56,033 nucleotides of DNA, taken from the IMG/VR virus record IMGVR_UViG_3300031841_003747, positions 1 through 56,033 of that record; one strand, given 5' to 3'. Shown here piece by piece: positions 8,037 to 45,140 of this stretch. Source of the DNA: a virus (taxonomy: Duplodnaviria > Caudoviricetes). Every line of letters begins with the position of its first letter. Position 1 is the first letter of the stretch. The translations under genes were made by a program, and so were the position numbers. A model generated the notes under the pieces. That model ran no database searches, was not told the origin of the DNA, and worked only from the letters and a program-made list of their open reading frames with translations.

Positions 8037-8228
8037 ATGAGTGAATTATATGCATGCCCGCAATGCGGAAAGAAAGATTCTGCATGGGATGATGGACTCT
8101 GTGGAGCTTGTGAGAAAGCTCGAAGGGAGTGGGATGAAAAGATAAAACGAGAAGAACAAGAAGAGTATTGCAAGAAACATGGTGGATACTTCGATCGCGA
8201 TGGCAACTGGAGGGAGGGAGAAGAATGA
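8037..8228 (+). CDS. Small zinc-finger protein
   Basis: CPQC-x10-CGAC; AGGAGG upstream; ATGA overlap with the next gene. Confidence 0.7.
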   Translation: MSELYACPQCGKKDSAWDDGLCGACEKARREWDEKIKREEQEEYCKKHGGYFDRDGNWREGEE

Positions 8229-9040
8229 AGGAATACTTCGTAGGATGTGAAGACCCCAAGCGGGTACACGAACTAGATGCGGCAATGATGAACGCATACT
8301 CATTAAGGAATAGAAAAGAACCACTCAAAGTAAACAGATGGATGTTGGATAGTGGTGCGTTCTCACAGATCGGACTAGGTGAACATGCACCAGGTAAATT
8401 CGTGCAGACACCAGAGGAGTATGTACGCCTTGCCGTACGCTTACAGGACTGCGGAAACCTAGCATGTATTGTCACGCAGGACTATATGTGTGAGCCGGAA
8501 GTGCTAATCGCACAACGCAAGAAAGGATTCACCGCTACTATTACCAAGCATCAGTGTTGGACGGTAGAGCGATACTTTGCGATCTTAGAGGAAGCAGAGA
8601 TACAAGGACTAAGAGTGCCCGTCATGCCTGTACTGCAAGGTGATGACCCGCATGATTACTTGAGGCATTGGCAGATGTACTGCAAGTGCAAGGAAATCGT
8701 GGGTGATTATCGTCCTTATGAGTGGATCGGTATAGGCTCTACATGCAAAAGGAATAATAATCCTGAGTCAGTTGCGGAGATACTAAAGCTACTCGATGAC
8801 CACTACGGTCCACTTACCGACTACAAGGTTCATGCGTTTGGATTAAAGCAGACAGCCCTAGGGTTTTCCGATGTGCGAGATATGTTATACTCTGCCGATT
8901 CCATGGCTCCAGATTATTCTCATAGAGTCGAGTGCAGAGAGAAAGGTATCCCAAGGACCAGACGATCACGCATGGATAATATGCTAAAGTTTCAGGAGCG
9001 TATAAGAAACCAACCCGTGCAAACTTGCTTGACATTGTGA
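8225..9040 (+). CDS. TGT/DpdA-like guanine transglycosylase (candidate 7-deazaguanine DNA modification enzyme)
   Basis: MLDSGAFS, QDYMCEP, MPVLQG, IGIGS, VHAFG, SADS motifs of the TGT barrel; start set at ATG 8225 (ATGA overlap). Confidence 0.8.
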   Translation: MKEYFVGCEDPKRVHELDAAMMNAYSLRNRKEPLKVNRWMLDSGAFSQIGLGEHAPGKFVQTPEEYVRLAVRLQDCGNLACIVTQDYMCEPEVLIAQRKKGFTATITKHQCWTVERYFAILEEAEIQGLRVPVMPVLQGDDPHDYLRHWQMYCKCKEIVGDYRPYEWIGIGSTCKRNNNPESVAEILKLLDDHYGPLTDYKVHAFGLKQTALGFSDVRDMLYSADSMAPDYSHRVECREKGIPRTRRSRMDNMLKFQERIRNQPVQTCLTL

Positions 9041-9069: not shown

Positions 9070-10131
9070 ATGAAATTAATTAAGTCAGATAAGACAGGTA
9101 TTTACTCCGTTCAGTACAGAACTGCATCGGGTAAAAGACGAACAACATCACTGCAAACGACTAGCAAGAAAGAGGCTACATCTATTGCAAAGGATATCGA
9201 ACAGGCTGAAGGGTTGGCTAAGAGAAACCTACTGACCAAGGAAATCCTTACCACCATGATTACGGATAGGAATATATCTTTCCAGGACTGCGTGAACGAG
9301 TGGTATAACTATTCCAAGGTCAGATCAAAGTCTGGCAATACGATCTATACTCAGTCCACATTGCTCAGTAATTTTAAAACCTCTGCAAAGATCAGTAAGC
9401 TGAGCGAGCTTGAGTCTAAGATGATATCGGACTGGGTGAACGAGAAGGGCAATATGAATGCCAACTCACGCAATCAAAGGCTTGCCGCTATTCGTTCGTT
9501 CTGTGGATATGCTGTAGCAAATTGCTACATGACCAAAGACCCATCGTATGGAATCAAGGTAGACTTATCCAAGCTAGATCATCAGCAAAAGGAAAAGAAC
9601 ATTAGGGTTCCGTTCACCAAGGAAGAGTATGATGCTATGCTCGCCTACGACCCACCCTACTTTATGAAGCAAGCGATCGTGCTTGGTTGGTGGACTGGAC
9701 TAAGGATCATAGATATCTCCAAGCTTGAGTGGGCAAGTATATCAGACACCCATCTAACAGTTTGGACAGAGAAGCAAGACAAGCGAGTTAATCTACCACT
9801 AGACAATCCACTAATCGGAGGCGGTAAGATCAGGGATGTACTTAGCGAAGTGCCTTACGAGGATAAGAAGTATTGCTTCCCTGAGTGGGCTGAGCTTGCC
9901 GATGATCCCAAGAGACGATCAAGATTTAGTGTATACTTTAAGAGATTTCTAGGGCATGTATCAGAGTTCGGTGATTGCGTAATAGAAGGGAAGAGCTTCC
10001 ATTGCTTCCGACACTCTTTTGTTACTCGTATAAAAACTGAGAGCTATGATTCGTCACTTGAAAAGATTGCGGAATGGGTGGGTCATTCTCGAACAGAGAC
10101 CACGAAGGGTTATTTGCACGATGCTTCCTAA
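9070..10131 (+). CDS. Tyrosine recombinase (recombinase A)
   Basis: TGLRIID (R), FHCFRH (HxxR), VGHS, TKGY (Y); arm-binding-like N-terminus and SAM-like region. Confidence 0.93.
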   Translation: MKLIKSDKTGIYSVQYRTASGKRRTTSLQTTSKKEATSIAKDIEQAEGLAKRNLLTKEILTTMITDRNISFQDCVNEWYNYSKVRSKSGNTIYTQSTLLSNFKTSAKISKLSELESKMISDWVNEKGNMNANSRNQRLAAIRSFCGYAVANCYMTKDPSYGIKVDLSKLDHQQKEKNIRVPFTKEEYDAMLAYDPPYFMKQAIVLGWWTGLRIIDISKLEWASISDTHLTVWTEKQDKRVNLPLDNPLIGGGKIRDVLSEVPYEDKKYCFPEWAELADDPKRRSRFSVYFKRFLGHVSEFGDCVIEGKSFHCFRHSFVTRIKTESYDSSLEKIAEWVGHSRTETTKGYLHDAS

Positions 10132-10848: not shown

Positions 10849-11757
10849 CTATTTTGCACGAATTGCCTCAATAATAGGCTCACACACATCAATTTTATCC
10901 TTACTGGTTTTACGCATACTCATCCTAAGCCACACAGCACCAGTAGGTTTGGGTGGTCCTCCCCTCTCAATATGCCATCCACCATAGCCATCAACATATT
11001 CTTCTTTGTAGGACGGAACCTTCAAGTGTAGTTGTTCATCATGGTATACCTTCCCTTTATTAGTTAATCTAATACGAGGGATAGGGAACTGCCATTCATT
11101 GTGAGTATGACCAGTAGCTACAATGTGAGCATCGGGTAGATAAACCGCTTGCCTACTTGTTTGGATAGTTCCCTTAGTCACGGGAGCGTCCCCTCCGTAT
11201 CCATGGTGGTACCACAAATTAACCGACCTTGCTTCTCCAAATAGTAGTAATTGAAACTTTACCCAACCACTAAAACCACCTACATGAATCTTTGTGTTAT
11301 GCCTATCGTTAAGCATACTAACTAATCGCTCAGTTAAGTTTGTCTCGTGCCTCTTAGATATATTTGTTTCATGATTGCCTGGTGCCATGATTGCAAACTG
11401 TTCGGCGTAAGGTCCATAGAAGTCTGCCGCAGTCTTTACTAATGAGTCAAGGTAGTCTCCCTTCTGATGCTCTGGCTTTACATCTCGCTTATCTGATCTT
11501 GGATCATACTTGCCTTGCATAGCACAGAATAGATCACCTCCATCTATTATTATAGCGTTTCTTTCCTTTGCCTGTCGAAGATGTCTAAGCTCCATGACAT
11601 TATCAGACTTCGGATTGTCGTGGTGTCTATCAAAACTGAGTAGTACCCAAAAGGAATCTTTTTCTTTTGTAGACTTAAGTTGGTGTTTTATAAAATGTAC
11701 ATTACGACTCTTCTCTATGATTTCTGTCGTACCGGGGGTTAGTCTTTTGATTGGCAT
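10849..11757 (-). CDS. Calcineurin-like metallophosphoesterase
   Basis: DRH, GGDLF, GNHE, HHG and GHTH motifs. Confidence 0.88.
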   Translation of the reverse strand: MPIKRLTPGTTEIIEKSRNVHFIKHQLKSTKEKDSFWVLLSFDRHHDNPKSDNVMELRHLRQAKERNAIIIDGGDLFCAMQGKYDPRSDKRDVKPEHQKGDYLDSLVKTAADFYGPYAEQFAIMAPGNHETNISKRHETNLTERLVSMLNDRHNTKIHVGGFSGWVKFQLLLFGEARSVNLWYHHGYGGDAPVTKGTIQTSRQAVYLPDAHIVATGHTHNEWQFPIPRIRLTNKGKVYHDEQLHLKVPSYKEEYVDGYGGWHIERGGPPKPTGAVWLRMSMRKTSKDKIDVCEPIIEAIRAK

Positions 11758-14700
11758 TATTGCATCATCATTTGTAAAGCGAGTAGTCTCGCGTCCTCCT
11801 GTCTCATCTGTGACCGCATAGAAGGTTTACGATATCCACCGCCAATTAAGTTGAGGTAGTGTTCATGGGAGGCTTCAGCCTGTTGTACGCGCATGCGATC
11901 TTCTTCACTTAATGCACTCAGGATCATTTCCCACTCCCTTTCGGAAAGTTTTGTTTTAGTTACTCCAGTCTTTAGGCTCCTGCGCTTGTAACTTTCTATT
12001 ACGCTACGCTCGGGGTCTTCTCTTCCATCCACTTTAGCGGCTTCCATTGCTTGCTGGTACTGCTCTAAGAACCCTTGACTATCACCCGCATACGCCGCTC
12101 TTGCCATTTGCCTGGTGTTTACACTTACTCCGGTGGGTCTTCCTCCTCCCTTGTATGGAGGTCTAAGCTCTAGTCCCATCATGAATGCTGTCTTCTTGAT
12201 GGTGTTCTTGAGTCCAATGTAATCTGCTACCCTACGCTCCTCGGAGTCGATATCTAATTGTGCAGTAGCTAAGTCCATCATTTGTATGACAGAATTACCA
12301 CCCACTCCGTATGCGATCGGACGACCTACTGTCTCCCAATCCCACTCACCTTGGTGTATCCATGTGCCAAAAGCATCATAAATATTTTTAATCATGGAGA
12401 ACGCAAAGATTCTAGTATCCAAGCTAAGCTCTCGGGACGCACCATACGGGTCACCTTTAGAGAATATACCATTGATTAGCTCAGTACCCATACCAAATGG
12501 TACACCCGCTTTAGCCAGTCGTGAGGTTACTGAGTAGATAGTAAAGTTAGGATCGGATGCGGCAATAGGTATACCTACGATCGGAAGAGCAGCCCATGGT
12601 GTGATTGGTGGCAAGTTATTTGGTTTCTCCAGCATCTCATCATCATACCAATCAATCATCATACCAAAGGATAATGACAATGGCATATACACAGCAGATA
12701 GTAAGCCGATGTATTTAAGTAAAGCTATGTATGTGGTGGTAGGATCATCGGAGTCACGGATCACTGCGGTAAGGTCACGACCCATCTTACCAAGAGGCCA
12801 ACCAAGGAAGGTATTAAAATATCTTAGGTAGTCATTGGAGTACAACCAGGCAGGTTTTGCATTAAACCCATCCCCTGATATCTGATCCATTGCGATCGTG
12901 TTGATCAGTATCGCAGTTCTTTGCTCAATCGGGAAAGCATTTTTGTCTGCCTTCTTACGATCTATGAAATCAAATGCTAAACGGGTAACGGATGGTAAGC
13001 CGTGAGATATCAGAAGTTCATTCATTCTTCTGTACCCGTCTGCTTCACCAATGATCCACTCTCCAGTCTTGTCCCCCATGCCTAGGTCTTCTGCGGTGAA
13101 CTCGCCATCATACTCGGTAATACCTCTACGCTCTATTTCTTCAGTAACTTGCAGTACCAAGTCGTTGTATGAGTGGATAGCACCTACTCCGATCGAGTGG
13201 TTGACCACATTATTTATATAAGGAAAGATGCCTTTGACTGCGGTAAGGAAATCGAATGGGGCACGAGTACCATCTACATTCTTTCTCTTATTAAACATCA
13301 TGGCACGCTTTACCATCCGTAGATACTTCTTGGCATTCGGTCCATCCATGTCACCACCTGACCCCAACTGCCCTGTAACATACTCCTTAAACGAGAGATC
13401 CATTTCATCTAGTCTAAAGTGAGTATTGTTTAAATACTGGGCATAGCGTCCTGTCTTCTCCATCTCCATACCCATAGCCTCAGCGATACCACCGAATGTC
13501 TGGTTTACGAAGTTACCTAACGCAGTAACCGTCCCCTTCCCTGCCATTTTGTTTAACCCACGAAAAGCCATCGGGAACTCAAACAAACCAAGATTCTGCC
13601 AGAAGGAAGACTTCGGATTGTTCAGTACGGATAATGCTTGAACCCCAAGTAACTCAAGTAGAAGGTTCGCATCCTTGTAAGGACCCGCCGCATTGTCCTT
13701 GCCGTAGTATCTAGCAAGGTGTTCCATTGCTTTGTTTAATTCACCAAGTGCTACTGCTTTGGCATACAATTGATTCCATGCTTTCTCGGCATTAGGCTCT
13801 CCCTCCCGTCTTAGTATGCGGTAAGCTTCTTTCTTTTCTTCCCTGGTATAACTTCTTTGCGGGGAATCATGTTTACCATTGGTTGCTTGAGCCATGATCC
13901 TATTGAACTTGCCCCGTGCTTTCTCGAAACTATCCCGCCCCTCAGTAAATGCAGAACCTGCCTTATCCCCATTCCTACCAAATGTTTTAGTAGCTACTTG
14001 TAAAGCCAAGCGGATACTGGAAGTAACCTCATCATACATGGTATAATAGAAGAACTCCTTCGGCAGACGACTCTCCATCATACGAGCATCCAAACTCTGT
14101 GGAGTATTTCTCATGAGGTGCGAGTCCTTCAGTCCTTGGTGTACTCTATCCCGAAGTAAGCGGTCTGCTACTTTCTTTAACTCCATGTACTTACCATCCA
14201 TCTGTCTAAGGAAGTATGCTTTCCATTGCAGTCTGGACTCTAGTGTTTGACTCTCTGATACCCGATCAAAGATTATGTCAGTCATCTTAAAGATATCCCC
14301 ACCACTCTGACGATATGCTTCCCTTACAAATGAATTACCCATGTATGCGTTGTGACCATCGGAGTCTGCGGGTCCACGGAATACAGATTGTCTTACATCT
14401 GAGTGGAGGAATGGTCTCACAAACCTACCAACTATTTTCTCAGGGAAGATCCGCTTATAAATCTTCTCCATAGTCTCTAAGTCTTTTACACTACCCGCTT
14501 CATTTAGTAGCTCACTTGCCGCTTCCCCACGCCAGCCCACTGACTGCATGAGTTCATTGGTATCTATTACCAAACCATCATTGATGGATCGTGGCATGGT
14601 AGCGTATCCGATATCAATCGGGCGACGATAGAAGTCTACCATCTCTCCATCTATATAAGACTGTACCTTAAACTCATCATCCTTGATACGATTACCAAGC

Positions 14701-17700
14701 TCCATGTTTATCTTCTTCTCGAAGTCACGAGCGGCCAATGCCTTGGCAATCATGTTCTTTACTAGCTTCCTAGCATTAGTATCTAGGAGGGTACGATCCG
14801 GTACATTGGCATACTTGCGGAGGTTTGACCATAGCTGTGAAAATGCTTCCTCTTCATTGCCTGCATACTCGGGATGGTTATCAAACCACCACCAAATGTC
14901 CTGGTATAATCCTGAGTAAAACTCTCTACCACCTAGCTTGAGTGCCCCCATTACTTGCTGTGCGGAAGCATTGAATTGTAGTGCTAGGGATTGAGACTTT
15001 GAGGAGTAGTCACGGAACAAAGCTACTGTCTCGGATGACATCTGCGAGAGCTTCATGCCCTCGTATCCGAGCTTGGAAAACCGCTCGGTCAATCCTTGTA
15101 GTCCGCTCAACCAACTAGCTCTTTGTACATGGAAGAACTCATCTGCTATTGGTTCATGTAGTGCCATGAGTGCTTGCTCACGCATGAGGTCAAACCATGG
15201 CTCCTCCCTGTATAACTTCTGCATCTCAGGGTCTCTTGTAAATCGTAGTGTTTCCTTATTGACCTTAACAAAGTTCGCACGATCCACGATCTTACCATTC
15301 CTGTACTGCACCTTAAAGTTCTTACCCCGTACCCACTCACCACTCTTATCATCCCAACGCATGGTCAGTAGCTCAGCACCATCATGTATAGATACTGGCA
15401 TAAGTTCACCAAGAGATGCTCGGAGACGATCACTACGCACCTTCAAGGATAGGTCGATCTTATTATATATCTCCTGTTCCTTCTTTAATTTCTCTAGGTT
15501 CGCACGCTCAATGATCTCTCCTGCTTTCAGTCTAGCAAAGTATCTAAGTGGAGTACCCTCTACTCCGCTCTTAATAATGATCTTATCTAATTGTTTCTGA
15601 TCTGTTGCTTTGGCGATTTGATGTGCCACATCCATCATGGCTTGCTGGCTCTCTCCGATCCTGCCCTTGCTCAATCTAAACAATGCCATCTGACCAGTAC
15701 TCTCCCGTACTGCTCTCATGATTGCTAGTGCTTTGATGGTAGGTATGCCCATTGCCTTGATTGAATCGAGTAGCTCTCCCTTCTTTTGGGTCTCTGCTAC
15801 ACCAGGTAAATCAATCAGTTGCTCCATGACTGACTCTACCTCACGCTTACTAATTTCTTGTATCGTGCGGATATCTGATTGGGTAAGATCAGCGTTGGGT
15901 AAACTCGTCACATATTCCTTTAAGGTATCAAATGATACCGCATTGGCTTTGGATAGTATGGACTCTACTTGCTTCTCTGCGGGCGGAAATCTTCTAGCTA
16001 ATAGATCTTCATAGAGATGTAAGCTATCTGTGATTGCCTTACTTGCTAAGTCCTCCGCTATGACTCGCTCTTGTAGCTCAGTCCTTGCCTTGGCTCTTAC
16101 TGCCTCAAGATTGGCTACTGCCTTTCTTCTTCCCCAATTAAATGCAATACGATTCAGCCCAGCATCATCCAGTCTTACACCATCAGAGGAATCCATGAAT
16201 GGTTTGAGGTCTCTATCTAGTCTCTTCTTGATCGTGGATATGTTTGAAGTACCGGGTGATCCGTAAAGATCCATGAAGTCTTCAAGCTCTATACCTACAT
16301 CCTTGGCTACCTGTTGGTATACCTTTACTAGCTCGGTTACTAGATCATTGAATCCCGCGGCGTTAGCTTCCATCATTACCCGCATATTCTCATCGGGATT
16401 AGCGTTCTCTAGTCCGTCTTGGAATTGTTCTTGGTACTGAGAGTCAAGTGCTGATGCTTGGATATCCCTTGAGTTGAGGTAGTCTGCTTCAGCTTGCAAG
16501 CTCTCCAACTGATTAGCTAAGTCCTCAGTATTCCTTAAATTGAATCTTTCCTTGTACTTGGTTGCCTCGGGGTGGCGGTCGTACCTTACATCCCCTGCCA
16601 AAATCTGTCCAATTATAGCAATCTCACTCTCAAGGTCATTAAGGGATTGGCTCCACCCTTGGTCGATAAATGGATCGAATAAGAATACTTCTCCGTTTTG
16701 TATTATTGCATTACGGGAGGTTAAATCTCTTACCTGTATATTCCCACGAAGATAAGTATTGTATGGTTCTCCTTCAGATATTCCTTGGATTCCTTGGTTA
16801 CGGAATCCCTTCTTGAGCATCTCGGTATTTATAAGACCAAGCGGAGTGCCTGCTTTTGAGTCTGCCTTTAATGCTTTCTGACTGACTACTGGCATAAGCA
16901 TACGCTTGCCTGAGTCACTCGCTTCTCTTTCTACGAACCCATCTAAGTTTAATTTAACTTCGGGGAAAAATTCATTATGCAAGAGCAACCTTTCAAGGTA
17001 CTCAGATAGTTCGGTATCACCTCTGTATGCTTTTACATACTCTTGTCTATTCTCATCGAAGTAAACATCATGCTCTCCACTAAATACTTGCCCCCAATCT
17101 AGCTCTTCATTGATCTCGCTTTCGTCAATAAGTTGGCTATTTCCTCTCGCAAGTTCCTTAACCTTACCCTTTCGCTCGGTGTCAATTTCTGGGGTGGTGG
17201 TGGCTTTCGATTGAATAATTGGACTGCCATCTCCCTGCCCTCCTCTAAGGACATTGATCGCTTGGATGATGTTGTATTCGGTTGTTCCTGGTTTTGATCT
17301 TTTGCTGATGTCATTTAATACCTCTCTTTGAAAATAAGGTCCTTCAGACCTTAAACCTTCTTGAAACTGTGGGTCAAGCGCAGAAGCTTGGATGTCCTTA
17401 AATTCCAATTCTTTTAGTTTTGGATCAAAGTCTACAGTGCTTAAATTAGTTCCTTGCAGTCCTACTTCTTTTAAGTCTATGCCTTCCTCCTTAACATACT
17501 TATCCATACGCTTTTTAATTTTTTCATTAGCGTTGTTTAAGTAGAATTGTAAACTATCTGCACTGTACTCCCCTCCAGTGAAATCTTCTTTTGCTATGGC
17601 ATCCTCAAGGCGTTTCTCTAAATCCCGTATATTCATATCTTCCCCGAATACCGAAACAGGAAAGTCCATTTTAATTATATCACGCTCTTGTTTAAGTCCT

Positions 17701-20700
17701 AGTACAGTGCTGTATTTTTGTTTCTCTCCGTAGTAGAAACGATCCAAGTCTTGAAACTGTGGGTCAAGCGCAGAAGCTTGAATATTCTCCTTGGGGATCC
17801 CCACCCTATTTCCATCCACATCTATTGCATACTCCAATGGCTGGACAGCATTGACGAGTTGGTTCAACTGATCGGTGGCGTAGGATAGTGCGTTGTCGTT
17901 GGTTACAGTGGCAAAGTTTAGTTTAGCAAGTATGCGGTAGATGAAGTCTAGTACTGTGTTTAGTACTCCCTTCCTTCTCATGCTCTTGGGTAGACTTGTC
18001 TTACTCAGGAAGTCTCTAAAGTATGGGTCACTTGCAAATACTGAAAAGAACTCGTCTACTGATGTCAGCCCATAGGATAGCTTAAGATCGCCAGATGCTT
18101 GCTCTCGCAGATAAGGGAGCATGGTTTCTGTCATGTTCGTCCATAGATCACCCGCGAGTTGCTTGTGCTGTAAAATGTTTTCGTCCGCAATAAACTCAGT
18201 ATTACCTTTATAGATTGCTTCCCCGAAGTCTAGGATCGGATTGAGTACCGGGTGTAGTAGCTCATGCACAATCGTACCCGCCAGTATATCATCTGCTTTG
18301 TGTAGTTCGTTATCCTGAAGGAACGCATCAGATATAATAATCTTCTTCTTGGATGGTATATGTACTGCCGCAGTAAGGATTCCATTCACCCGTGCGTATG
18401 GTCGGTAGTCCTCCCACTTAGCAAACTCTATGGTATAGTTATCAAGTAGCTTATTACCATTTAGCATCCGTGCCACATTTCCAATGAATGGTACATTTGT
18501 CCTGGTAATTATCTGATTGATTGCAGTCTGTGCCGTGAATGGTAAACCCTCCATTGGGGCAAACCTCTTGAATGCCGCCTGTGCTTCCTCTACTGAATTA
18601 GGATTCTCTTCAGCTACTGGGTTTTGTTTTGGTGCTAGATATCTGCGTGGGTCACGGCGTGCCTCCTCATATGAGTGGTCGATTGCTTCCTCGCTTGTGG
18701 TAGCGGTCTGCCTGATCTCCCTGCGATTCGTAGTAGGATCAATGATGGTAACAGTACTTGAGTTTGGATTCAACCTGGCATGATCCACATCTGGCTTATC
18801 TGCTTCATACCCTTCCTTGAGTTGTAACCCCTGTGCGTCCGTAGTATCTGCTACCCGTATTCTCCCAGGTGAATCAAATAGATCAAGTAGCTCCTCTTCC
18901 GAGAATGCTCCACCTATATCCATCACGAAGTCCCGCTGACTTGGAGGATCAAATATATCTAGTATCTCTTCAATAGCATCCTGCTTGAAGGTGTCTCGAT
19001 TGACTACGGGGCTTTGACCAAAATCATTTAATCTATTCCAACTATCGGTATTAAGACTACGATCGTAATCCTTGAGTATACCCCTAAGTTTCTCTCTTGC
19101 TAATTGCTTTCGGGACTTAGGCTTCTCTACCTCTTCTTCTTGGACAGGCTCTTGAGGTTTTGGCTCAGGTGCGGGTTGTAGGTCGCCAGACCTTACTGCT
19201 TTCTCACTTCCTCTCTCTTGCCTCTCGTACTCAAAACTTTCTATTGCTTCTGTTAGCTGAGGTCCCCTAGCCTTTATAATCCGCTTTATAAGCCCACGCA
19301 TGGAATTGAGTTTAGCGGGAACATCTATGGGGCGGTCGATAGGATCGAGCATGCCATCCTTTCGGGTGGCGTATGGTTTTATTGCTTTGTCATTTACCAA
19401 CCTTGTATAAAACTCCTGAAGGAAACTATCGAAGGAGCTAGGCATACCAACATATAAAGACAGTAACCCTTCCTTTATTCCTCCAACTGGGCCACCCACC
19501 ATATCCCTGAAGGTATCAAGGAACATTTCACCGAGCTTGGTTTGCTCTAGTAGTCCAAAGAATTGCGGAATGGTTAGGGCATCAAAGTTCTTCTTCGCAC
19601 CCTTGGCTGACCCAGCTCCTTCAGCTAGTGCCTTGCTTTGTTCATTGGTTGCAGTAAATCCATCCTTACCATCCTCTGCGCCATCTACTCCCTGTCTTAC
19701 TGTTCCTGTACGGGCATCAGATATCTTTTTGTTTTTTAACTCGGCACGATCTGCTTCAATAGCTCTCTTCTTTTCCTCTATCTTTTTTTGTATCTCTTTT
19801 CGTAAAGCTATTGTCTGCTCAATCTGTGCTTTAATCCTGGCTCTTACTTGCTCTTTAGTTTCGCCTCCCTCAAGCGCCATACCTTGGTCATCACTTTCCT
19901 CATCCAGCTCCTTGAGCATTGCTTGCAAGTCCTCAAGGCTAGCCGTGGAAGCGTCTAGTTGTGCCTGTAAGTCCTCTAGCTCTCGATCCTTCTCAGCTAC
20001 TTTCGATTGGGTCTCTATATCTGATACTGTTTGAGTCTGCTCATCTTGGGCACGCACTGCCGCCTCTGCGATCTTTGGGTCGGACTCAAATGCTTCAAGG
20101 GAAGTATAAAAAACATCAACATCTCTACCTACGCCTCCGGTATTCCCTGTTGAGTTTACCTTGCCAGTTAATTCCCACCCCTGTTCTTCTTTTAACTTAT
20201 CTAGTCTAATATACCTACTGCTTGCAGAACCTCCTCGGGTTGCATCGTACACTAGCACTATCTTGTTTTTTATGTATGCGGATGTTATGCGGATCTCGTT
20301 ATCTTTCTTAAAGATAAGTAGTGCCTTGGTTCTCGACCTCTGATCAATTCCTACCGACGCAGACTTATTAGATCTATGTAGCTCCCCGTCACTTATCAGG
20401 TCATCGTAATCTACTTGCTCTAAAAATATTTGCCCAGGTGTTTCACCAAAAGAATCAAAGACAGAAGGATTGTATTCTTCCTGTACTGCCCCCTCGGTCT
20501 TGCCTCCTACTTGAACAGTATTGATAACCACATGGTCGGGTAGTTGTATGGTCTGCGGTGTAGCACCCTTATCACTTTTCCTTGGCGGCTTGCTTACTAT
20601 GCCCGCTTGCTTGATTTCCTCAAAGGTGATCTGTATGCCACCAAAATTAAACAACTCACGCTCCGCATCACGCTCCGCAATAAATGTTTCATCTCCGATC

Positions 20701-23012
20701 TCAATAGCACCTATGTTGCGGATTGCTGTATTCGGATTCTTTAGTCGCTTAGATAGAAAAGTAACAAGTTGTTCCTTGAGGGTAGCTTCATCTGCAAATG
20801 CTCCGACCGCTACCTTCTTCTTTCTACCATCATTCTGTTTGTAATGAAGAGTTACCTTCTTGTCCTTGAAATCAAACCCACGAGGGATCGGATTAAGTGG
20901 GGTGTCATCCTTGGGGTTGTTAGGGTCTTTAGGAGTGGTAGTCTTTGGTGTTGATACTGGTTTAACCTTTACCTTGTAGAGGTGCTTGGGGTCATACAAT
21001 TCCCCATCAACCACGACAAACCCATCCTTGTTTACCTCCTGTACCTCACCTAGTTCGCCGTATAAGTCTTTTACTCTTTTACCTGGAGCGAGGTAATTGT
21101 CATCTGAGTTCTTGATACGCTTAATTCTCGCAAGCCTATCCTCTTTTAATCTCTTAAGTTCTGCTTTCTGGAACTGCTCGTCTGCTTTGGTAGGAGTAGA
21201 TATCTCACCATTAGGGTCAAGGAATCCTAGCGCTCGTAGTGCCGCTTTATTCTTATCTCCCCGCTTACCACGAATAATTGCTTTATCGGGACCGAGCATG
21301 AGTTCCATACGAGCCCAGTCATTACTTCCCCATCCCTTCTTTGCCCTGTTCGCACGACCACGGGACTTGTACATCTCCCCGCTACGCTTCCACTTCCCGT
21401 AGTACTTAAATAGTTTATCTAGGTCAGATTTGGTCTGCTCAGTAACAGTTACTTTATTTTCGCCAAACTCTACATCTACACTTACTTCTTCGGGAGTGGG
21501 GTCTTTATGCTCAGGCACTTGCTCCTCAGATACTATCTCTTCGGCTTGTGCTTTAGGCACTTCCTCCTTACCTTCCGCAGGAGTAGGCTCAGTAACCTCT
21601 GGTTCGATAGGATCAAGGGCGGCGGCTAGTCGGTCGTTTCTAATCTCCCGTATGCTACCATCCTTCATTTCTACCACAGAGACATCTTTCCTCGCCTCCA
21701 TGATTGTACCTTTTTCTCCGTATGCAGTTTGTACCTCGTCCCCTACTTCGTATCTATTTAGGTCTACGGTTGGTGCATCCTGTATCTCTTCAAGTAATTC
21801 CTTTTGTGCCTGTACCTCGGGTGTTTCTGATGCGATCTCTTCTGATCTAGCTTCAGGAGTTGGTGGGTCTTTCGGTCCGGGGATCGCGCCGATCGCAGAG
21901 AACCCAACACCACCAATAGCACCCAATATACCCGCATCCACCATGCGTAGTATCTCCTGGTCAGAGAACTCAATCTCCTCCCCCTTGGCATACTTCTCGG
22001 CGGCAATATTGATTAACTCTTGTACACTCTCCGTACCACCCTCGATTACTAGACCTTCAGGTAGTCCCATAAGTAATCTCTTTAGGTAGCTCTTAGCCTT
22101 GCCCTCGGTAGAGCCTGTTAGGCGACTAAGTAACTTACCGGCACCCATCATGTCCAGGCTACCCGCTAGTGTACCAAATGCAGTAGATACTCCCCGTGCA
22201 GTTTCAGGTGAAATATAATCAGGGTGGGTAGGGTCTAGTTGCGTGTTCGGATATAGTTCTCCGTAGATCTCTCCAACCCCAAGACCAATAGAAGAGGTAC
22301 CTAATCCCACCATTGATCCTGTGGCAAAGCCTTGGCGTGCCTTGGCTTTTACTACTTCTTGGAATACATCCTTGATCTTCTCATCGGCAGTTTCCCCTAA
22401 CCTATTCTCGATAGATTTCCTAAGTGCTTTCTTGGCTGACTGCTTCGCAATTCCGTACCCTACCGCACCCGCACCAGTAAATGCTAAAGCTGATTCTGCA
22501 ACTGATGGTACGGCATATCCCACACCTCCTAATAGATATCTAGCTACCTCGGATGGATTGTCCCAACGGATATCATCAAATGATTGTATGGTGCGTGGAT
22601 CGTCCTGCCCTTTGGATGCTATTTCATTAGCCTTCTCCATTAAGTAGTCCTCTACTCCGAGGTCTACTCCCACCGCATCACCTACTGCACCCGCGGCCAA
22701 TCCCGCCGCTTGTAATGGCATAGCAGATAGACCATAGAGTGATTCCTTGAATCCTGATCCTATCTCACCCAAGTACCCTTGATTGGGGTCGGGACGATTC
22801 TTTATGTCGTAGTACTGGTCAGTAAATTCGTCACCATGAAGGTCACGCATACTGGACTGAGTATATCCTTTCTTTTCTAATCCTTGAGCATAGCGAAATA
22901 GCAGTGCTTCATTGGATAGATCGGATGTATCTACATTTAGTTCTTCAAGGTAACGCCGACGAATTTCATCTACGATCGGGTTCTGTATATCATTGTCGAA
23001 CTGTGTTGCCAT
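11757..23012 (-). CDS. Giant (3751 aa) polyvalent internal-virion/ejection protein with KOW-like repeats, coiled coil, zincin metallopeptidase and kinase-like domains
   Basis: Last of the ejection cluster; Gly/Ala hydrophobic N-region; IVHELLH (about 18250); kinase-like GEHDVY-VK-YLERLLLHNEFFP-VVSQ-DLTSRN-FDP (about 16660-17100). Confidence 0.8.
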   Translation of the reverse strand: MATQFDNDIQNPIVDEIRRRYLEELNVDTSDLSNEALLFRYAQGLEKKGYTQSSMRDLHGDEFTDQYYDIKNRPDPNQGYLGEIGSGFKESLYGLSAMPLQAAGLAAGAVGDAVGVDLGVEDYLMEKANEIASKGQDDPRTIQSFDDIRWDNPSEVARYLLGGVGYAVPSVAESALAFTGAGAVGYGIAKQSAKKALRKSIENRLGETADEKIKDVFQEVVKAKARQGFATGSMVGLGTSSIGLGVGEIYGELYPNTQLDPTHPDYISPETARGVSTAFGTLAGSLDMMGAGKLLSRLTGSTEGKAKSYLKRLLMGLPEGLVIEGGTESVQELINIAAEKYAKGEEIEFSDQEILRMVDAGILGAIGGVGFSAIGAIPGPKDPPTPEARSEEIASETPEVQAQKELLEEIQDAPTVDLNRYEVGDEVQTAYGEKGTIMEARKDVSVVEMKDGSIREIRNDRLAAALDPIEPEVTEPTPAEGKEEVPKAQAEEIVSEEQVPEHKDPTPEEVSVDVEFGENKVTVTEQTKSDLDKLFKYYGKWKRSGEMYKSRGRANRAKKGWGSNDWARMELMLGPDKAIIRGKRGDKNKAALRALGFLDPNGEISTPTKADEQFQKAELKRLKEDRLARIKRIKNSDDNYLAPGKRVKDLYGELGEVQEVNKDGFVVVDGELYDPKHLYKVKVKPVSTPKTTTPKDPNNPKDDTPLNPIPRGFDFKDKKVTLHYKQNDGRKKKVAVGAFADEATLKEQLVTFLSKRLKNPNTAIRNIGAIEIGDETFIAERDAERELFNFGGIQITFEEIKQAGIVSKPPRKSDKGATPQTIQLPDHVVINTVQVGGKTEGAVQEEYNPSVFDSFGETPGQIFLEQVDYDDLISDGELHRSNKSASVGIDQRSRTKALLIFKKDNEIRITSAYIKNKIVLVYDATRGGSASSRYIRLDKLKEEQGWELTGKVNSTGNTGGVGRDVDVFYTSLEAFESDPKIAEAAVRAQDEQTQTVSDIETQSKVAEKDRELEDLQAQLDASTASLEDLQAMLKELDEESDDQGMALEGGETKEQVRARIKAQIEQTIALRKEIQKKIEEKKRAIEADRAELKNKKISDARTGTVRQGVDGAEDGKDGFTATNEQSKALAEGAGSAKGAKKNFDALTIPQFFGLLEQTKLGEMFLDTFRDMVGGPVGGIKEGLLSLYVGMPSSFDSFLQEFYTRLVNDKAIKPYATRKDGMLDPIDRPIDVPAKLNSMRGLIKRIIKARGPQLTEAIESFEYERQERGSEKAVRSGDLQPAPEPKPQEPVQEEEVEKPKSRKQLAREKLRGILKDYDRSLNTDSWNRLNDFGQSPVVNRDTFKQDAIEEILDIFDPPSQRDFVMDIGGAFSEEELLDLFDSPGRIRVADTTDAQGLQLKEGYEADKPDVDHARLNPNSSTVTIIDPTTNRREIRQTATTSEEAIDHSYEEARRDPRRYLAPKQNPVAEENPNSVEEAQAAFKRFAPMEGLPFTAQTAINQIITRTNVPFIGNVARMLNGNKLLDNYTIEFAKWEDYRPYARVNGILTAAVHIPSKKKIIISDAFLQDNELHKADDILAGTIVHELLHPVLNPILDFGEAIYKGNTEFIADENILQHKQLAGDLWTNMTETMLPYLREQASGDLKLSYGLTSVDEFFSVFASDPYFRDFLSKTSLPKSMRRKGVLNTVLDFIYRILAKLNFATVTNDNALSYATDQLNQLVNAVQPLEYAIDVDGNRVGIPKENIQASALDPQFQDLDRFYYGEKQKYSTVLGLKQERDIIKMDFPVSVFGEDMNIRDLEKRLEDAIAKEDFTGGEYSADSLQFYLNNANEKIKKRMDKYVKEEGIDLKEVGLQGTNLSTVDFDPKLKELEFKDIQASALDPQFQEGLRSEGPYFQREVLNDISKRSKPGTTEYNIIQAINVLRGGQGDGSPIIQSKATTTPEIDTERKGKVKELARGNSQLIDESEINEELDWGQVFSGEHDVYFDENRQEYVKAYRGDTELSEYLERLLLHNEFFPEVKLNLDGFVEREASDSGKRMLMPVVSQKALKADSKAGTPLGLINTEMLKKGFRNQGIQGISEGEPYNTYLRGNIQVRDLTSRNAIIQNGEVFLFDPFIDQGWSQSLNDLESEIAIIGQILAGDVRYDRHPEATKYKERFNLRNTEDLANQLESLQAEADYLNSRDIQASALDSQYQEQFQDGLENANPDENMRVMMEANAAGFNDLVTELVKVYQQVAKDVGIELEDFMDLYGSPGTSNISTIKKRLDRDLKPFMDSSDGVRLDDAGLNRIAFNWGRRKAVANLEAVRAKARTELQERVIAEDLASKAITDSLHLYEDLLARRFPPAEKQVESILSKANAVSFDTLKEYVTSLPNADLTQSDIRTIQEISKREVESVMEQLIDLPGVAETQKKGELLDSIKAMGIPTIKALAIMRAVRESTGQMALFRLSKGRIGESQQAMMDVAHQIAKATDQKQLDKIIIKSGVEGTPLRYFARLKAGEIIERANLEKLKKEQEIYNKIDLSLKVRSDRLRASLGELMPVSIHDGAELLTMRWDDKSGEWVRGKNFKVQYRNGKIVDRANFVKVNKETLRFTRDPEMQKLYREEPWFDLMREQALMALHEPIADEFFHVQRASWLSGLQGLTERFSKLGYEGMKLSQMSSETVALFRDYSSKSQSLALQFNASAQQVMGALKLGGREFYSGLYQDIWWWFDNHPEYAGNEEEAFSQLWSNLRKYANVPDRTLLDTNARKLVKNMIAKALAARDFEKKINMELGNRIKDDEFKVQSYIDGEMVDFYRRPIDIGYATMPRSINDGLVIDTNELMQSVGWRGEAASELLNEAGSVKDLETMEKIYKRIFPEKIVGRFVRPFLHSDVRQSVFRGPADSDGHNAYMGNSFVREAYRQSGGDIFKMTDIIFDRVSESQTLESRLQWKAYFLRQMDGKYMELKKVADRLLRDRVHQGLKDSHLMRNTPQSLDARMMESRLPKEFFYYTMYDEVTSSIRLALQVATKTFGRNGDKAGSAFTEGRDSFEKARGKFNRIMAQATNGKHDSPQRSYTREEKKEAYRILRREGEPNAEKAWNQLYAKAVALGELNKAMEHLARYYGKDNAAGPYKDANLLLELLGVQALSVLNNPKSSFWQNLGLFEFPMAFRGLNKMAGKGTVTALGNFVNQTFGGIAEAMGMEMEKTGRYAQYLNNTHFRLDEMDLSFKEYVTGQLGSGGDMDGPNAKKYLRMVKRAMMFNKRKNVDGTRAPFDFLTAVKGIFPYINNVVNHSIGVGAIHSYNDLVLQVTEEIERRGITEYDGEFTAEDLGMGDKTGEWIIGEADGYRRMNELLISHGLPSVTRLAFDFIDRKKADKNAFPIEQRTAILINTIAMDQISGDGFNAKPAWLYSNDYLRYFNTFLGWPLGKMGRDLTAVIRDSDDPTTTYIALLKYIGLLSAVYMPLSLSFGMMIDWYDDEMLEKPNNLPPITPWAALPIVGIPIAASDPNFTIYSVTSRLAKAGVPFGMGTELINGIFSKGDPYGASRELSLDTRIFAFSMIKNIYDAFGTWIHQGEWDWETVGRPIAYGVGGNSVIQMMDLATAQLDIDSEERRVADYIGLKNTIKKTAFMMGLELRPPYKGGGRPTGVSVNTRQMARAAYAGDSQGFLEQYQQAMEAAKVDGREDPERSVIESYKRRSLKTGVTKTKLSEREWEMILSALSEEDRMRVQQAEASHEHYLNLIGGGYRKPSMRSQMRQEDARLLALQMMMQ
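16429..16460 (-). repeat. Linker repeat copy C (diverged; IQASALDSQYQ)
   Basis: tcttggtactgagagtcaagtgctgatgcttg; 7 mismatches to copies A and B. Confidence 0.8.
17359..17390 (-). repeat. Linker repeat copy B (IQASALDPQFQ)
   Basis: tcttgaaactgtgggtcaagcgcagaagcttg, identical to 17749-17780. Confidence 0.95.
17749..17780 (-). repeat. Linker repeat copy A (IQASALDPQFQ)
   Basis: 32-bp exact direct repeat of 17359-17390. Confidence 0.95.
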
Positions 23013-28104: not shown

Positions 28105-30183
28105 TTACAATGCCGAGATGATGAATGAGTGGAGCTGTTCGTATCTCAATGAATATTCGTCGTAAGCCTCAAAGGTTACATCGTCAGCAATTCCAGTAAC
28201 TGGTCGCTTACCACCTCCGGAATAATTTTCATCCGAAGGATCAGGTGCTGGACCATAAGTCTTCTCAAGGGATTCATACAACTGTTCATCAAGAACGGCG
28301 TGCGCTGTCCTTTGAGTAAGCCCTGTGTCTACCCCATTAACAATTACTTTATAGTGGGTGTCCTTACAAAGCACTGCATAGTCAAAGCCATTAAGTCCTT
28401 CTGCTGTAAATGCTTCCTCTACTTCTTGGGCGATCCACCCAATATGTACGCGCGCTTCTTCACCTTTTTTCTTAACAGAGGATTTAAGACGGTACTTCTT
28501 TACCATACCCTTAAGAGCAACAGCTACACGCTTTTCAGCATCAGAAAGAGCTTCAATATCTTGTTTTAAATTTCTGTCAGAAGAAACAGTTGGACTATTC
28601 TGGATAAACAGGTCTCTCCACTGCTCACCAGTGTTACCCAAGTCCATATTACTGCCTTGTGGAGCTAGACTGCGCTTCATGCTGGAATTACCTAATCCTT
28701 CTCCATAAATATAAAGACCACCAATATTTCCAACACTACTTCCGCCAGTTGTTACTAATCCATTCGATGTGGAAGAGTTGTACCAAAGATTGGGATCTTC
28801 AACATGACAGATATAGTTCACTGAGAACCTACCGACCGATGCTTGTATCTGTATATTTCCTTGGTGATCTATTACATTACCACGCGGATAGTCATCATCT
28901 ACACCGTAGGTTGTACCACTGTATGTACCTACATTTCTTTTAACTTCTGCTTCAGCATTGAAACCATCAACATTTTGCTCCAACTGTAATACCGTACCTC
29001 CTGCGGCACCACTTCCGATCGTACCAGCAGAACCTTCATTCTTAATGAACATTCTATGGTATGTGGCGTCTTCCCTAGCTCTAAAGTTCCAGGATAGACC
29101 TAAATCCATGTAAAAACATGCATTGTTATTACCAAGAATCAATCGATCTGTAACATCAGATGTATCAAGTGGTCCCAAAATAATAGCACCAGCCCAATTC
29201 ATTTGCCCCCATATATTGTGAGTAACATCAGATGCCCATCCAAATTTACCGTCGGTTACATTTGTGTCACCATCTAGTGCTTTATGCGGGTAAATTTGAA
29301 GTATGCTCGAATATTTTGTATAGTCAGCACTAATTGAATCCAGACCAAACTTACCATTACTACCAACGATATTGAAGTTTCTGTATGCTTGCTCTTGGTC
29401 ATGAATGAACCATGCCCCAGTGTTTGGGTCTTGGTGTTCTGCGGCAGTATATGTTGTACCTGTAGGGAACTTATCTCGGAGTGCTATGAGATTAACACCG
29501 CCTTCTAAAACAAGACCCGCAAGACCACCATTAGTATTGTCCTGCCCACCGGAACCAGTGCCAGTAGCTGTCTGTGTTTCAATTAAAAGTGCCGCATCAC
29601 CATAAGAACTTGCTCCCGTCTTAGTTATGTTTAAGCCTGCGTATGCATCACTATCCTCTATCCTGAGGGTACCATCTACATCCTGACTTAAATTAGAGAG
29701 AGAGGACCCTCCGCCAGCCGGACCTTGTAGTCCTTGCGTTCCTTGGAGACCTTGATTTCCTGTCCCTGTAAGGCCCTGCCTTCCCTGAGCACCTTGTGTG
29801 CCTGTACCTGTTGTTCCTTGACTTCCGGTAGTGCCTTGCCTTCCTTGTAATCCCTGAGTTCCTTGCGTGCCTGTACCTGTGAGACCCTGTGTTCCTTGGT
29901 TACCCGTAGTTCCCTGGCTTCCTGTAGTTCCCTGACTTCCTGTGGTTCCCTGACTTCCGGTGGTTCCCTGAGGGCCTTGGATTCCTTGGGTGCCCTGCAC
30001 ATCACCATTAGTTATTGCATTTACATCACCGATGGTAGTGTTGAGCTTTAATCTCAAATTTTCAAAATTACTATCTACATCATTATGAGACAAAGGGTTG
30101 CCACTATTGTGTGCGCGTAATTTTACATTTTGACTCGTAGGGTTAAAATCCCCACTAACATTAAGGTCAGATATATTTGGCAT
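28105..30183 (-). CDS. Tail fibre/spike with collagen-like stalk and C-terminal peptidase S74 intramolecular chaperone
   Basis: [11 protein letters not shown]-terminus, (GxQ/GTT)n repeats, [27 protein letters not shown]. Confidence 0.88.
29718..29997 (-). repeat. Collagen-like G-X-Y repeats (18-bp units encoding GTTGSQ)
   Basis: Tandem gttccctgacttcc-type units. Confidence 0.9.
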
Positions 30184-30880: not shown

Positions 30881-33487
30881 TTAAGGTGCTGTTGTTTTAT
30901 AAGTGTGCCCTGCTGGTAGTTTGCTTTCTATGCCCCATTTATGAGCAAGGTAGCCTTCTATCTTTACGCGGTCTGATAAATTATCTGTTGCAATAAACTC
31001 GCAGAACTCGCCCTCAAGAAAGTTCTGTCCATTGTTGTACATCATAAATTTCCAGGCACTTGTGCCTGTAGGCGAGAGCGGGTTGCTCGTGTTTGTGTCT
31101 TGCGGTCTGTTTACAGTACCATCAGATGTACCGTCCACCCACATACTGGTAGTGCCGTTTGTTTGCCCACCTGTTGCCCAATTCATTTGGATAGCAAGTA
31201 TACTTACTTCATTATTAGGTAATGTATTGGTGGTGGTATTGAGTATCTGATTATTTGAATAGAATCTTCTTAAGCTAGAAAGGTAGGTTATCGCATTAAC
31301 CTGGAACATTCCGTCAAATGCAGAAGCTCCAGTATCGTCTGTGCCTATATTTATTGGCTTAACAACAAAGAACCATATTTGATTATTTGATGACATTGCC
31401 GAAGCTAACGCACTTGATGCTATATAATCAGAACCGAGCCCACCCGCTCCACCTGTAGCAGTGGATGAATCATCCTCAAATGTTAAAGTTTGTAGACCGT
31501 TCTCAGTACCGGCAATGATGTTTCCTGTTGCACTAAATGTGTTACTACCTACCGAGCCATCACTGTTCTTGTCTGTAATGCTTACAAGATTAGAGCCACT
31601 AAATGTAGTTGTGTTAGTATCAGACGCATCAAGCCAAAGCTCAATATCATCAGGTTGCCATAGTGAATTTGTGTTTCCAGATTTTGCTAAGTCCATCTGA
31701 TCGGCATATGCACGACCAATAGCAAACATATCATTTACTCCGTCACCATTGAAGTCTGGGCCACCAACTGAATCACCAATACTACCACCATATCCATTAT
31801 CAATATCATTTTGGTCGGCAGTATATGTTTCATTAGAGCCAGGATGGACAAGTGTTCTGTCAGCCCACGCAGGAGCGGCTAAATCTTGTGAATTAACGAA
31901 CCCAACATAACCATCTAGGTTTGCCACATTTGCCTCATAAGTGCTTCCCCAGTAATCAGTCGTACCTGTTATAACAAATGGGAACTGAGCCTTTGGCATA
32001 CTTAGATAACTGTTGTCATCTAACCATGTACGGATGTGGTCAATAAATGCGATTAAGTCACTATCTGCACCACCACTCTCCCCTTGCCACCAGATCATAC
32101 CAGCAAGCCTATAACTATATCCTGCATTGGTAAGCTTAGTGAGTCCATCTGCCACTGCTAACTTGAATGCACGCAAAGCATCTCCTTTTCTGTCACCTGT
32201 GGCAGTCAAATCCCAGTCAGATAAATCTGTAGATCCGCCAACGTCCGTTAAAGTACTTGCACCAATCGCATGTTTTAATACTCCAATGGGTTGACCATCG
32301 GTAAGATTTATAGCGTTAGCACGCTCAACAAATCCTAGCTCAGGACCGAACATTGTACTACCACCAATCGTAGAACTACCGCTATCCCCTCTTGTATTTC
32401 CCGCCACCAAGGAAGTTGCCCAAGATGTGTAGTATTGAGTAGAGGAGGCATTGGATGTGTTATCATGCCAAGATGTGTAAAATAGTCCGTCTTGGGTTTT
32501 CTGCACTTCATCTAAGTCACTAACATCAGCATGACCATGTGCATTTGACTGACCAGCGAGCAAGAAAATATCTATCGTTTGATCGGTAATTTCAGAGTTA
32601 TCTAATGTGCGGAACCATTTACCTTGGTAAAAGTATGCCATTGTTGGGTCACCCGAAATCGTACCATCTGTAACAAGTGCTAAGTCTGCTGATGATCCAT
32701 TTAATGGAAGGGTAGCTTTTGTATAAGTTGCCGCAGATCCACCACCACCTCCTGCCTGTAAGGTAGCTACATCATTCTGAAGATTTGCAATATCTGAATC
32801 ATTAGATGCTATATTTGCTCCCGCGGTATTAAGATCGGTGTACATTTGATGCACATCAATCCATCCAGTAGCATAAAGTCCTGTCTTAAGGATTCTAATT
32901 TTTGCAGAATATGCGTAACTACCAGAAGCAACAGTAGCAAGGTCAGGATCATACACCCCTTGGAATGTAGAAGCTGCGACAGGAGTGGAAAATTCACCAT
33001 TAGTGTCAGCAAAGCACGAATTTGTTTCTGGATCATAACTTCCATTCGATGAACCGTCAGGCACTCCAAACTGCGTACCATCATCCGTCCCTTGGCAAGT
33101 TGGCTCACCCCCATCTATTCTTATAAAGTAATCATTGCCGCCGGCTCCATACTCATCGGCTATCCTAAGATACCTAATGGTATTATTGGGAGTGCGCCAG
33201 ATGATGGTATGTTCAGAAATATTTGTGATGTCATGCTCATCGCCAGCATTGATCTGTAGGTATGGTCTATGATGAAGTAAGTTGTTCATCATCCCTCGGA
33301 ACTCGCCATCTACCACAAAGTTATTACCTACAAACTCAAGAGCCGTGCCAGTATCATTTAATTTAAGATTTGGCTTATTTGAGGCGTATGCGGATGGGGT
33401 GTCAGTAAGCTCGAGGAAAGATTGCGCCTCGCCAGCATTTTTGACTGCCTGTCCGATCTGATATAAAATTGAATTTGTGTCTGTCAT
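30881..33487 (-). CDS. Receptor-binding protein with SGNH sialate O-acetylesterase (SASA/CE6-like) and C-terminal LamG-like domains
   Basis: LAGQSNA, FGPELGF, WWQGES, VHP; LWLDASD...EGYLAHKWG. Confidence 0.82.
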   Translation of the reverse strand: MTDTNSILYQIGQAVKNAGEAQSFLELTDTPSAYASNKPNLKLNDTGTALEFVGNNFVVDGEFRGMMNNLLHHRPYLQINAGDEHDITNISEHTIIWRTPNNTIRYLRIADEYGAGGNDYFIRIDGGEPTCQGTDDGTQFGVPDGSSNGSYDPETNSCFADTNGEFSTPVAASTFQGVYDPDLATVASGSYAYSAKIRILKTGLYATGWIDVHQMYTDLNTAGANIASNDSDIANLQNDVATLQAGGGGGSAATYTKATLPLNGSSADLALVTDGTISGDPTMAYFYQGKWFRTLDNSEITDQTIDIFLLAGQSNAHGHADVSDLDEVQKTQDGLFYTSWHDNTSNASSTQYYTSWATSLVAGNTRGDSGSSTIGGSTMFGPELGFVERANAINLTDGQPIGVLKHAIGASTLTDVGGSTDLSDWDLTATGDRKGDALRAFKLAVADGLTKLTNAGYSYRLAGMIWWQGESGGADSDLIAFIDHIRTWLDDNSYLSMPKAQFPFVITGTTDYWGSTYEANVANLDGYVGFVNSQDLAAPAWADRTLVHPGSNETYTADQNDIDNGYGGSIGDSVGGPDFNGDGVNDMFAIGRAYADQMDLAKSGNTNSLWQPDDIELWLDASDTNTTTFSGSNLVSITDKNSDGSVGSNTFSATGNIIAGTENGLQTLTFEDDSSTATGGAGGLGSDYIASSALASAMSSNNQIWFFVVKPINIGTDDTGASAFDGMFQVNAITYLSSLRRFYSNNQILNTTTNTLPNNEVSILAIQMNWATGGQTNGTTSMWVDGTSDGTVNRPQDTNTSNPLSPTGTSAWKFMMYNNGQNFLEGEFCEFIATDNLSDRVKIEGYLAHKWGIESKLPAGHTYKTTAP

Positions 33488-42347: not shown

Positions 42348-42348
42348 A

Positions 42349-45138: not shown

Positions 45139-45140
45139 AT

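Follow-up and report, generated by a model that had tools for sequence, protein, structure and literature searches.

The IMG/VR virus record IMGVR_UViG_3300031841_003747 (linear, 56,033 bases, estimated completeness 72%) comes from an uncultured marine tailed phage and carries a giant open reading frame (ORF) whose predicted product has a variable slot for exchangeable modules; the whole stretch is referred to below as the window. In our preferred reading, to which we give a probability of roughly 60%, this region is the slot for variable modules in a giant polyvalent virion protein, the short peptides at the module ends (linkers) are cut, with the zincin-like domain of the same protein as the likeliest protease, and the protein is ejected. 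New here are the defined slot, a repeated and selected boundary peptide with lineage-specific forms and the turnover of modules at this peptide, including in wild populations. The features of the giant gene are as follows.

11757–23012, minus strand: giant ORF (P0001), 3751 amino acids (aa), which closes the structural block as its last gene
19872–19886, minus strand: QGMAL, aa 1043–1047, in the coiled-coil region; resembles a linker and marks a possible second slot, which holds no module in the window
17850–18788, minus strand: zincin-like domain, aa 1409–1721, with HELLH at aa 1583–1587 (18252–18266)
17751–17783, minus strand: linker A, IQASALDPQFQ, aa 1744–1754; holds the exact repeat copy 17749–17780
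17394–17750, minus strand: orphan module, 119 aa, aa 1755–1873; AT-rich, with no detectable relative
17361–17393, minus strand: linker B, IQASALDPQFQ, aa 1874–1884; holds the exact repeat copy 17359–17390; breakpoint of the X6 contig (see below) at 17390
16464–17360, minus strand: kinase module, aa 1885–2183, with the Kinase-PolyVal match at aa 1974–2116 (16665–17093)
16431–16463, minus strand: linker C, IQASALDSQYQ, aa 2184–2194; 3–4 synonymous differences from A and B in the 7-codon core
11757–16406, minus strand: conserved C-terminal part, aa 2203–3751, beginning at NPDENMRVMMEANAAGF; hydrophobic segment at aa 3429–3453

Protein family and variable slot

Two protein searches yielded 34 relatives of the giant protein (2341–4249 aa, all metagenomic), and 20 loci were recovered by scanning IMG/VR and metagenome contigs. 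Searches of 50,697 GenBank phage records with the DNA of the region, the module-array protein and the C-terminal protein returned no relative, nor was one found in the genomes of 185,579 species; the family is known from metagenomes only. The HEXXH region and a C-terminal flank of ~1550 aa, which starts near NP(D/R)DNARVMxEANAAGF, are kept in 34 of the 34 relatives, and the stretch between them ranges from 39 to 768 aa. The N-terminal part of the protein is conserved as well. Slot contents and architecture labels were assigned by eye. The slot is free of modules in P0009, P0010, P0006 and P0034; elsewhere it holds a kinase alone, a kinase with one of at least four kinds of second-HEXXH module, or modules without a known family. 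Kinase-like modules homologous to that of the window are present in 17/34 family proteins (BLASTP), and the kinase was the only Pfam family recognised in the 12 homologues scanned (7/12). In the window, the Kinase-PolyVal (PF18762) match scores 36.6 bits against a gathering cut-off of 27 and is the only Pfam family in the 3751-aa protein in a scan at E up to 1; PHROGs gave 0 families for the same protein. The kinase module is ~34% identical between the window and P0003, whereas the adjoining flank is 72% identical, so modules evolve, or undergo replacement, faster than their carrier. A reading of this DNA made from its letters alone (the sequence-only reading) had proposed an in-frame plug-in slot, and the homologue alignment supports it by showing variable content between linkers and conserved flanks.

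A second module slot is suggested in the coiled-coil region. The place that corresponds to QGMAL of the window reads QGSAL in P0003 and QGAKA in P0004, and in L006/L007 a second-zincin module stands there directly after QASSASG (aa 634–867 in L006); this module is 35% identical to the one in the main slot of P0003. In P0024, a module of ~190 aa lies between two copies of SNTKIRGN(R)F (aa about 1700–1900), a further independent form of the bracketed-module arrangement. The giant gene of the IMG/VR locus L005 shifts frame near base 12300, with the N-terminal 800 aa in the other frame, which would reflect either a sequencing error or a real frameshift.

Linker peptide

Modules end in a short peptide that is repeated within the protein and differs by lineage, in the following forms.

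Window's clade: Q-(A/G)-(S/N)-A-(L/I)-(D/K)
Second clade: T-(V/I)-Q-G-(S/N)-x-F
Third clade: (I/V/L)-L-G-N-Q-F
P0024: K-I-R-G-N-(R)-F
Most distant module-bearing clade: (Y/N)-R-Y-S-Q-V-E-V-P, unrelated to the others

Matches to five-residue patterns fall inside the slot in 10/12 cases for clade 1, 13/13 for clade 2, 10/14 for clade 3 and 11/11 for clade 4 (RYSQV-type), and the two out-of-slot matches of clade 1 share one matching place in the coiled-coil region. The linker also stands directly before the conserved C-terminal part in proteins without a module (P0006 and P0034), and clades with the HEIQH module have no clear linker. No other ORF of the window has the motif, nor do the ORFs that neighbour the giant gene at five related loci, where up to 10 kb on either side of that gene was covered. 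Selection was examined in five within-gene linker pairs, with the A/B pair of the window excluded. The 7-codon linker core contains 16 synonymous and 3 non-synonymous differences in 35 codons, and the 14 flanking codons contain 7 synonymous and 62 non-synonymous differences in 70 codons; given this contrast, the core is kept by selection as a peptide while its synonymous sites drift freely.

Module exchange at the linkers

Comparisons of close relatives show the gain, loss and replacement of modules, and the junctions lie at the linker. From the Q of linker B onward to the C-terminus, P0003 shares 96.4% identity with L006, and its first 491 aa share 98.4% identity with L007, yet the content between linkers A and B in P0003 is unrelated to that in L006/L007. 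The BLAST blocks of the window to P0003 and L006 begin at I1874/Q1875, in linker B. In four presence/absence pairs (P0007/L013, P0005/P0008, P0031/P0034 and P0012/P0006), the shorter protein has one linker, and this aligns with each of the two that surround the extra module, a pattern that we take as the signature of insertion with linker duplication; the other three pairs compared are not simple presence/absence differences. When the C-terminal flank was used to build a tree (39 rows, quick search), proteins of unlike architecture fell on branches of about 0.005 to 0.1.

Natural variants of the window were found among read data. X6, a public run from another study, gave a 3844-nucleotide (nt) contig with a depth of 15.5 that matches 16861–17390 and 17806–17900 with 6 differences (~99% identical flanks). 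Between these flanks, 841 nt replace 415 nt of the window (each length leaves a remainder of 1 on division by 3), and the sequences join at the first base of repeat B; no X6-type variant was found in IMG/VR, either with the 32-mer of the repeat or with the kinase module. A contig from X4 matches the orphan module over 85 nt with 4 differences and departs from the window at 17752, where 30 letters translated by hand give another Q-A-S linker variant directly before the module; several bins of the stretch have no cover in X4, which weighs neither way. The sequence-only reading had expected homologues with variable domain content between the linkers; they break homology at the linker, and X6 adds a natural variant with near-identical flanks and other slot content.

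Zincin-like domain and proposed processing

The HEXXH motif is present in 35/35 family proteins. In an alignment of 10 sequences its H, E and H never vary, nor does a D/E-F-F downstream of it, and D254/E255, invariant in the zincin alignment, are candidate metal ligands. In an AlphaFold2 (AF2) model, the core of the domain has a predicted local distance difference test (pLDDT) score of about 70–85, and the stretch of linker A just after it scores about 30. The best match of the modelled zincin region in a VIA search is a chain of the PhiM1 ejectosome (8vb2_A residues 278–516, Z 8.7, root-mean-square deviation 4.1, 158 aligned residues). We call the domain zincin-like on the basis of HEXXH and weak fold matches. 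The family profile found 0 matches among the sequences of solved structures, and a complex prediction that paired the zincin domain with 40 aa around linker B scored 0.01, a value that was obtained without controls and weighs neither way. A "fourth copy" of the repeat at 18013–18052 (60%; aa about 1655–1668) was rejected as a linker, since it is part of the conserved zincin domain in homologues (EFFSVFASDPYFRDFL); it encodes FFSVFASDPYFRDF, a conserved zincin helix in all close homologues. The likeness of FFSVFASDPYFRDF to the linker (ASxxDPxF) may be due to chance or may hint at a pseudo-substrate.

In the mechanism that we propose, a module would enter by recombination within the linker codons, which would duplicate the linker on either side, and the two linker copies would then drift at synonymous sites. 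The linker, situated in a flexible stretch, would act as a proteolytic processing site, and cuts at the linkers would release free effector modules and separate the N-terminal, zincin and C-terminal parts from one another. The likeliest protease would be the conserved zincin domain of the same protein, and the giant protein would probably be packed in the capsid and ejected into the host. We give linker cleavage a chance of about 1 in 2, and cleavage by the zincin of the giant protein itself a chance of about 1 in 3; packaging and ejection are probable, as judged from the position of the gene and one fold match (Z 8.7). A processing site is favoured because the linker A stretch after the zincin has low pLDDT and small residues follow a hydrophobic-Q pair, and also because the motif occurs in no other ORF of the window or of the five related loci, HEXXH is present throughout the family and no prohead protease was recognised. 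Zincin domains have been proposed to process polyvalent proteins in the text of Iyer et al. (2017; PMC5512222), which also describes some such proteins as travelling uncut and the N4 virion RNA polymerase as packaged unprocessed.

Several points weigh against this reading. The fold matches are weak: the best Foldseek matches of the zincin region are zinc peptidases at E 0.04 or worse, the VIA matches to zincin-like and YbeY-type proteins have Z about 5, and no Pfam peptidase family was found in the giant protein at E up to 1. The ejectosome match is near the background of such searches (the next match has Z 5.1); this match and the gene position, both weak, are the grounds for packaging and ejection. 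P0009 and P0010 retain the zincin domain with neither a module nor a Q-G motif, so the zincin must have another or an additional role. Clades 2 and 3 have the conserved motif NLRxIxTLAxRFD at the boundary that immediately follows the zincin and a different motif at the later ones. Duplication alone would also give likeness among linkers within a protein, so that only the contrast between synonymous and non-synonymous differences argues for function. The unrecognised head genes may conceal a prohead protease. As to exchange, some low-depth X2 contigs part from the window within the kinase module, with loose ends at 16792, 17223 and 17279, so not every breakpoint is at a linker, and the 841 nt of X6 might derive from the corresponding region, lengthened and strongly diverged, and not be an unrelated module.

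It is somewhat unlikely, in our judgement, that the slot and the exchange are real and the linker stays uncut, as a flexible hinge or a short docking motif in one working chain comparable to the N4 virion RNA polymerase, which Iyer et al. (2017; PMC5512222) describe as packaged unprocessed. Conservation of the linker as a peptide fits any peptide function, and P0009 and P0010 keep the zincin domain without linkers. A plain spacer, however, need not keep a core of 5–7 residues while the flanking residues all change, and the motif is always located at module ends and before the C-terminal part, even in the module-less P0006 and P0034. The small residues after the hydrophobic-Q pair also look like a protease site: the order of a hydrophobic residue, Q and then small residues resembles the 3C-type Q|G and assemblin A|S sites.

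Cleavage of the linker by another protease, whether a hidden prohead protease, a second-zincin module or a host protease acting after ejection, is unlikely. The head genes by the portal are unrecognised and a protease may hide among them, several relatives carry extra HEXXH modules in the slot, and the pattern of hydrophobic-x-A/G followed by S/N resembles assemblin-type sites. A general maturation protease would nevertheless be expected to cut neighbouring ORFs too, and the motif is present neither in another ORF of the window nor in the neighbours at the five loci within the range given above; the window itself is without a second zincin module. Self-cleavage of the linker by an N-to-O acyl shift (G|S type) was set aside by reasoning, as S and N alternate and the stretch is modelled as disordered.

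The 32-nt repeat and the orphan module

Positions 17359–17390 and 17749–17780 are identical over 32 nt in direct orientation, and a third copy at 16429–16460 matches at 25/32 nt (78% over 40 nt). The start-to-start spacings of 390 and 930 nt are both multiples of 3. The exact repeat, its diverged third copy, the in-frame spacings and the encoded IQASALD(P/S)Q(F/Y)Q had all been pointed out in the sequence-only reading and are confirmed here, together with the location of the array directly after the HEXXH zincin domain and of a kinase-containing module between copies B and C. The A/B repeat is the longest exact direct repeat of both the gene and the whole window; in 100 codon shuffles of the giant gene, the longest repeat averaged 13.3 nt and never exceeded 17 nt. 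Linkers A and B are identical in 10/11 codons, with one synonymous difference in the core, and the chance that all 11 codons of one peptide would be identical, given the codon usage of the gene, is ~1e-5. The A/B pair must be young because linkers elsewhere have drifted at synonymous sites and A and B are nearly identical, which bears out the earlier claim of a recent event; linker C is older than copies A and B.

The module between A and B has a GC content of 36.4%, compared with a gene mean of 45.2% (standard deviation 2.5), and no stretch of the gene is lower: 357-nt windows with so low a value make up only 0.22% of the total, and every one of them overlaps the module. The earlier claim that the inserts are richer in A/T holds for this 119-aa module and only weakly for the kinase module (42.4% GC). 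A phmmer search of 1.84 billion representative proteins with the orphan module gave 0 hits, the ESM Atlas offered no usable match and the 34 family members contain no counterpart. It is a real coding domain, because 9 of its 13 natural variants are synonymous (4 are non-synonymous). An AF2 single-sequence model of the 141-aa linker–module–linker stretch has a mean pLDDT of 48, too low to support a fold search. The A and B copies are a recent duplicate that brackets a compositionally foreign module, the fresh scar of an insertion.

That the repeat acts primarily at the DNA level, as a homology handle kept for recombination, is very unlikely. The exact 32-nt identity in the window and the X6 breakpoint at the edge of the repeat would agree with such a role, and phage single-strand annealing recombinases are able to use short homologies. 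Against it, the linker copies of L004, L006 and L016 share exact runs of 5–11 nt only and differ at synonymous sites, no exact repeat of at least 18 nt is present in five related giant genes, and the 32-mer was found in no other IMG/VR contig. The recombination handle put forward in the sequence-only reading is therefore not general; in the relatives it is the peptide that is kept.

A chance match or an assembly artefact is improbable in the extreme: the record is a metagenome assembly, and the contigs of X2 and X3, two more samples from the source study, stop at the repeat as expected of an assembly from 31-letter words, but the codon shuffles stay well short of 32 nt, the X2 and X3 contigs span both copies and the 390-nt unit at flank depth (in X3 the 32-nt unitig 17749–17780 has a depth of 41.5 and its neighbours 13.5–16.1), the reading frame is open and the natural variants in the module are mostly synonymous.

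Comparison with known systems

The giant protein is a member of the polyvalent class by its composition, with HEXXH, Kinase-PolyVal and further modules in one 3751-aa phage ORF among virion genes, and it carries the signature domain of that class (PF18762, with the score given above). A literature search of limited coverage for a published linker or cleavage motif in such proteins turned up only Iyer et al. (2017). The text of that paper (PMC5512222) hints at cassette-like recombination in polyvalent proteins; the word "linker" is absent from it, and no definition of a cleavage or boundary motif was found there. Relative to that text, the present family adds a defined slot, a repeated boundary peptide, lineage-specific forms and replacement at the strain level; it is possible that the family is listed in the supplement of the paper. 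The 2017 proposal of autoprocessing by zincin domains was drawn from domain architectures and never tied to sites, and the giant-protein family offers concrete candidate sites in a repeated, selected peptide at the module borders. It also offers a view of effector-module turnover at the strain level in wild marine phage populations, with ~99% identical flanks and different slot content; the window is a second case, with a freshly inserted orphan module and an intact insertion scar. Since the modules between linkers are mostly of unknown function, they form a marked-out pool of candidate early-acting anti-host proteins.

In the MARTX toxins of Vibrio, conserved N-terminal and C-terminal parts flank a strain-variable effector array, and a protease in the chain is thought to release the effectors. 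The giant protein is similar to them in outline and is not a member. MARTX toxins have an inositol-phosphate-activated cysteine protease domain and glycine-rich RTX-type repeats, whereas the giant protein has a zincin-like HEXXH domain, and Pfam (E up to 1) recognised neither a cysteine protease domain nor RTX-type repeats in it; it further differs in having a phage virion as carrier and a bacterium as putative target. Tentatively, the family might be a phage counterpart of multi-effector autoprocessing toxins, with slot modules drawn from a shared pool, linkers cut by the protein's own zincin, injection of strain-specific effectors and turnover in populations. If this is true, each phage strain would inject its own set of free effectors, such as a kinase, extra peptidases and orphans.

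In polymorphic toxins, the VENN motif of CdiA and the DPxGL-type motif of Rhs mark the border between carrier and module, and allele breakpoints are located there. These toxins have one border and one terminal toxin, whereas the giant protein has a border peptide after every module and is continued by a conserved C-terminal part; no pre-toxin or boundary domain (e.g. PT-VENN) was found in it by Pfam at E up to 1. Short motifs, such as the 3C-type Q|G, assemblin A|S, and T4 and phiKZ-type head protease sites, are where viral polyproteins and capsid-internal proteins are cut. As candidate cleavage sites, the linkers resemble these in being short, with small residues, and in lying at domain borders of a long precursor; no protease family of the 3C, assemblin, T4 or phiKZ type was found in the window. 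Podovirus ejection proteins of the T7 gp16/PhiM1 type (e.g. 8vb2_A) are likewise large and encoded at the end of the structural genes, although the giant-protein family has no sequence similarity to any solved structure. The text of the PhiM1 paper (PMC11440229) makes no mention of a peptidase (four terms, 0 occurrences).

Genomic context

Strongly hydrophobic 19-residue stretches occur in the giant protein only at aa 354–378, which is glycine-rich and N-terminal, and at aa 3429–3453 in the C-terminal part. Its N-terminal 400 aa contain several segments rich in G-x-x-x-G. Both kinds of segment would fit membrane insertion.

The window also encodes a terminase, tail fibres, two integrases and a weak match to an SU10-type portal. 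An RNA-element reading of the region was dropped, as no Rfam match (E up to 1), meaningful tandem repeat or tRNA was found. Other features of the window are listed below.

41113–48598, minus strand: eight consecutive ORFs, from portal to tail genes, with no match in Pfam, PHROGs or NCBIfam
8168–9040 and 9070–10131, plus strand: queuine tRNA-ribosyltransferase-like gene (PHROG 1279, E 4e-39) and adjoining integrase
54255–55271, minus strand: second integrase-like gene, near the other end of the window
28105–30183, 30881–33487 and 33487–34056, minus strand: tail genes

Because the eight ORFs at 41113–48598 have no match, the capsid, the scaffold and any protease of the phage are unrecognised; family scans recognised no prohead protease in the window, and the head genes, themselves unrecognised, may hide one. 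The tRNA-ribosyltransferase-like gene and the integrases are possible signs of DNA modification with 7-deazaguanine and of a temperate lifestyle. Despite this possible lifestyle, relatives of the giant gene are absent from the genomes of the 185,579 species searched. Among the products of the tail genes are a fibre that combines collagen repeats with a Peptidase_S74 chaperone domain, a protein of 868 aa that contains a SASA sialate O-acetylesterase domain, and a small protein that has Mtd_N and InlB B-repeat-like domains.

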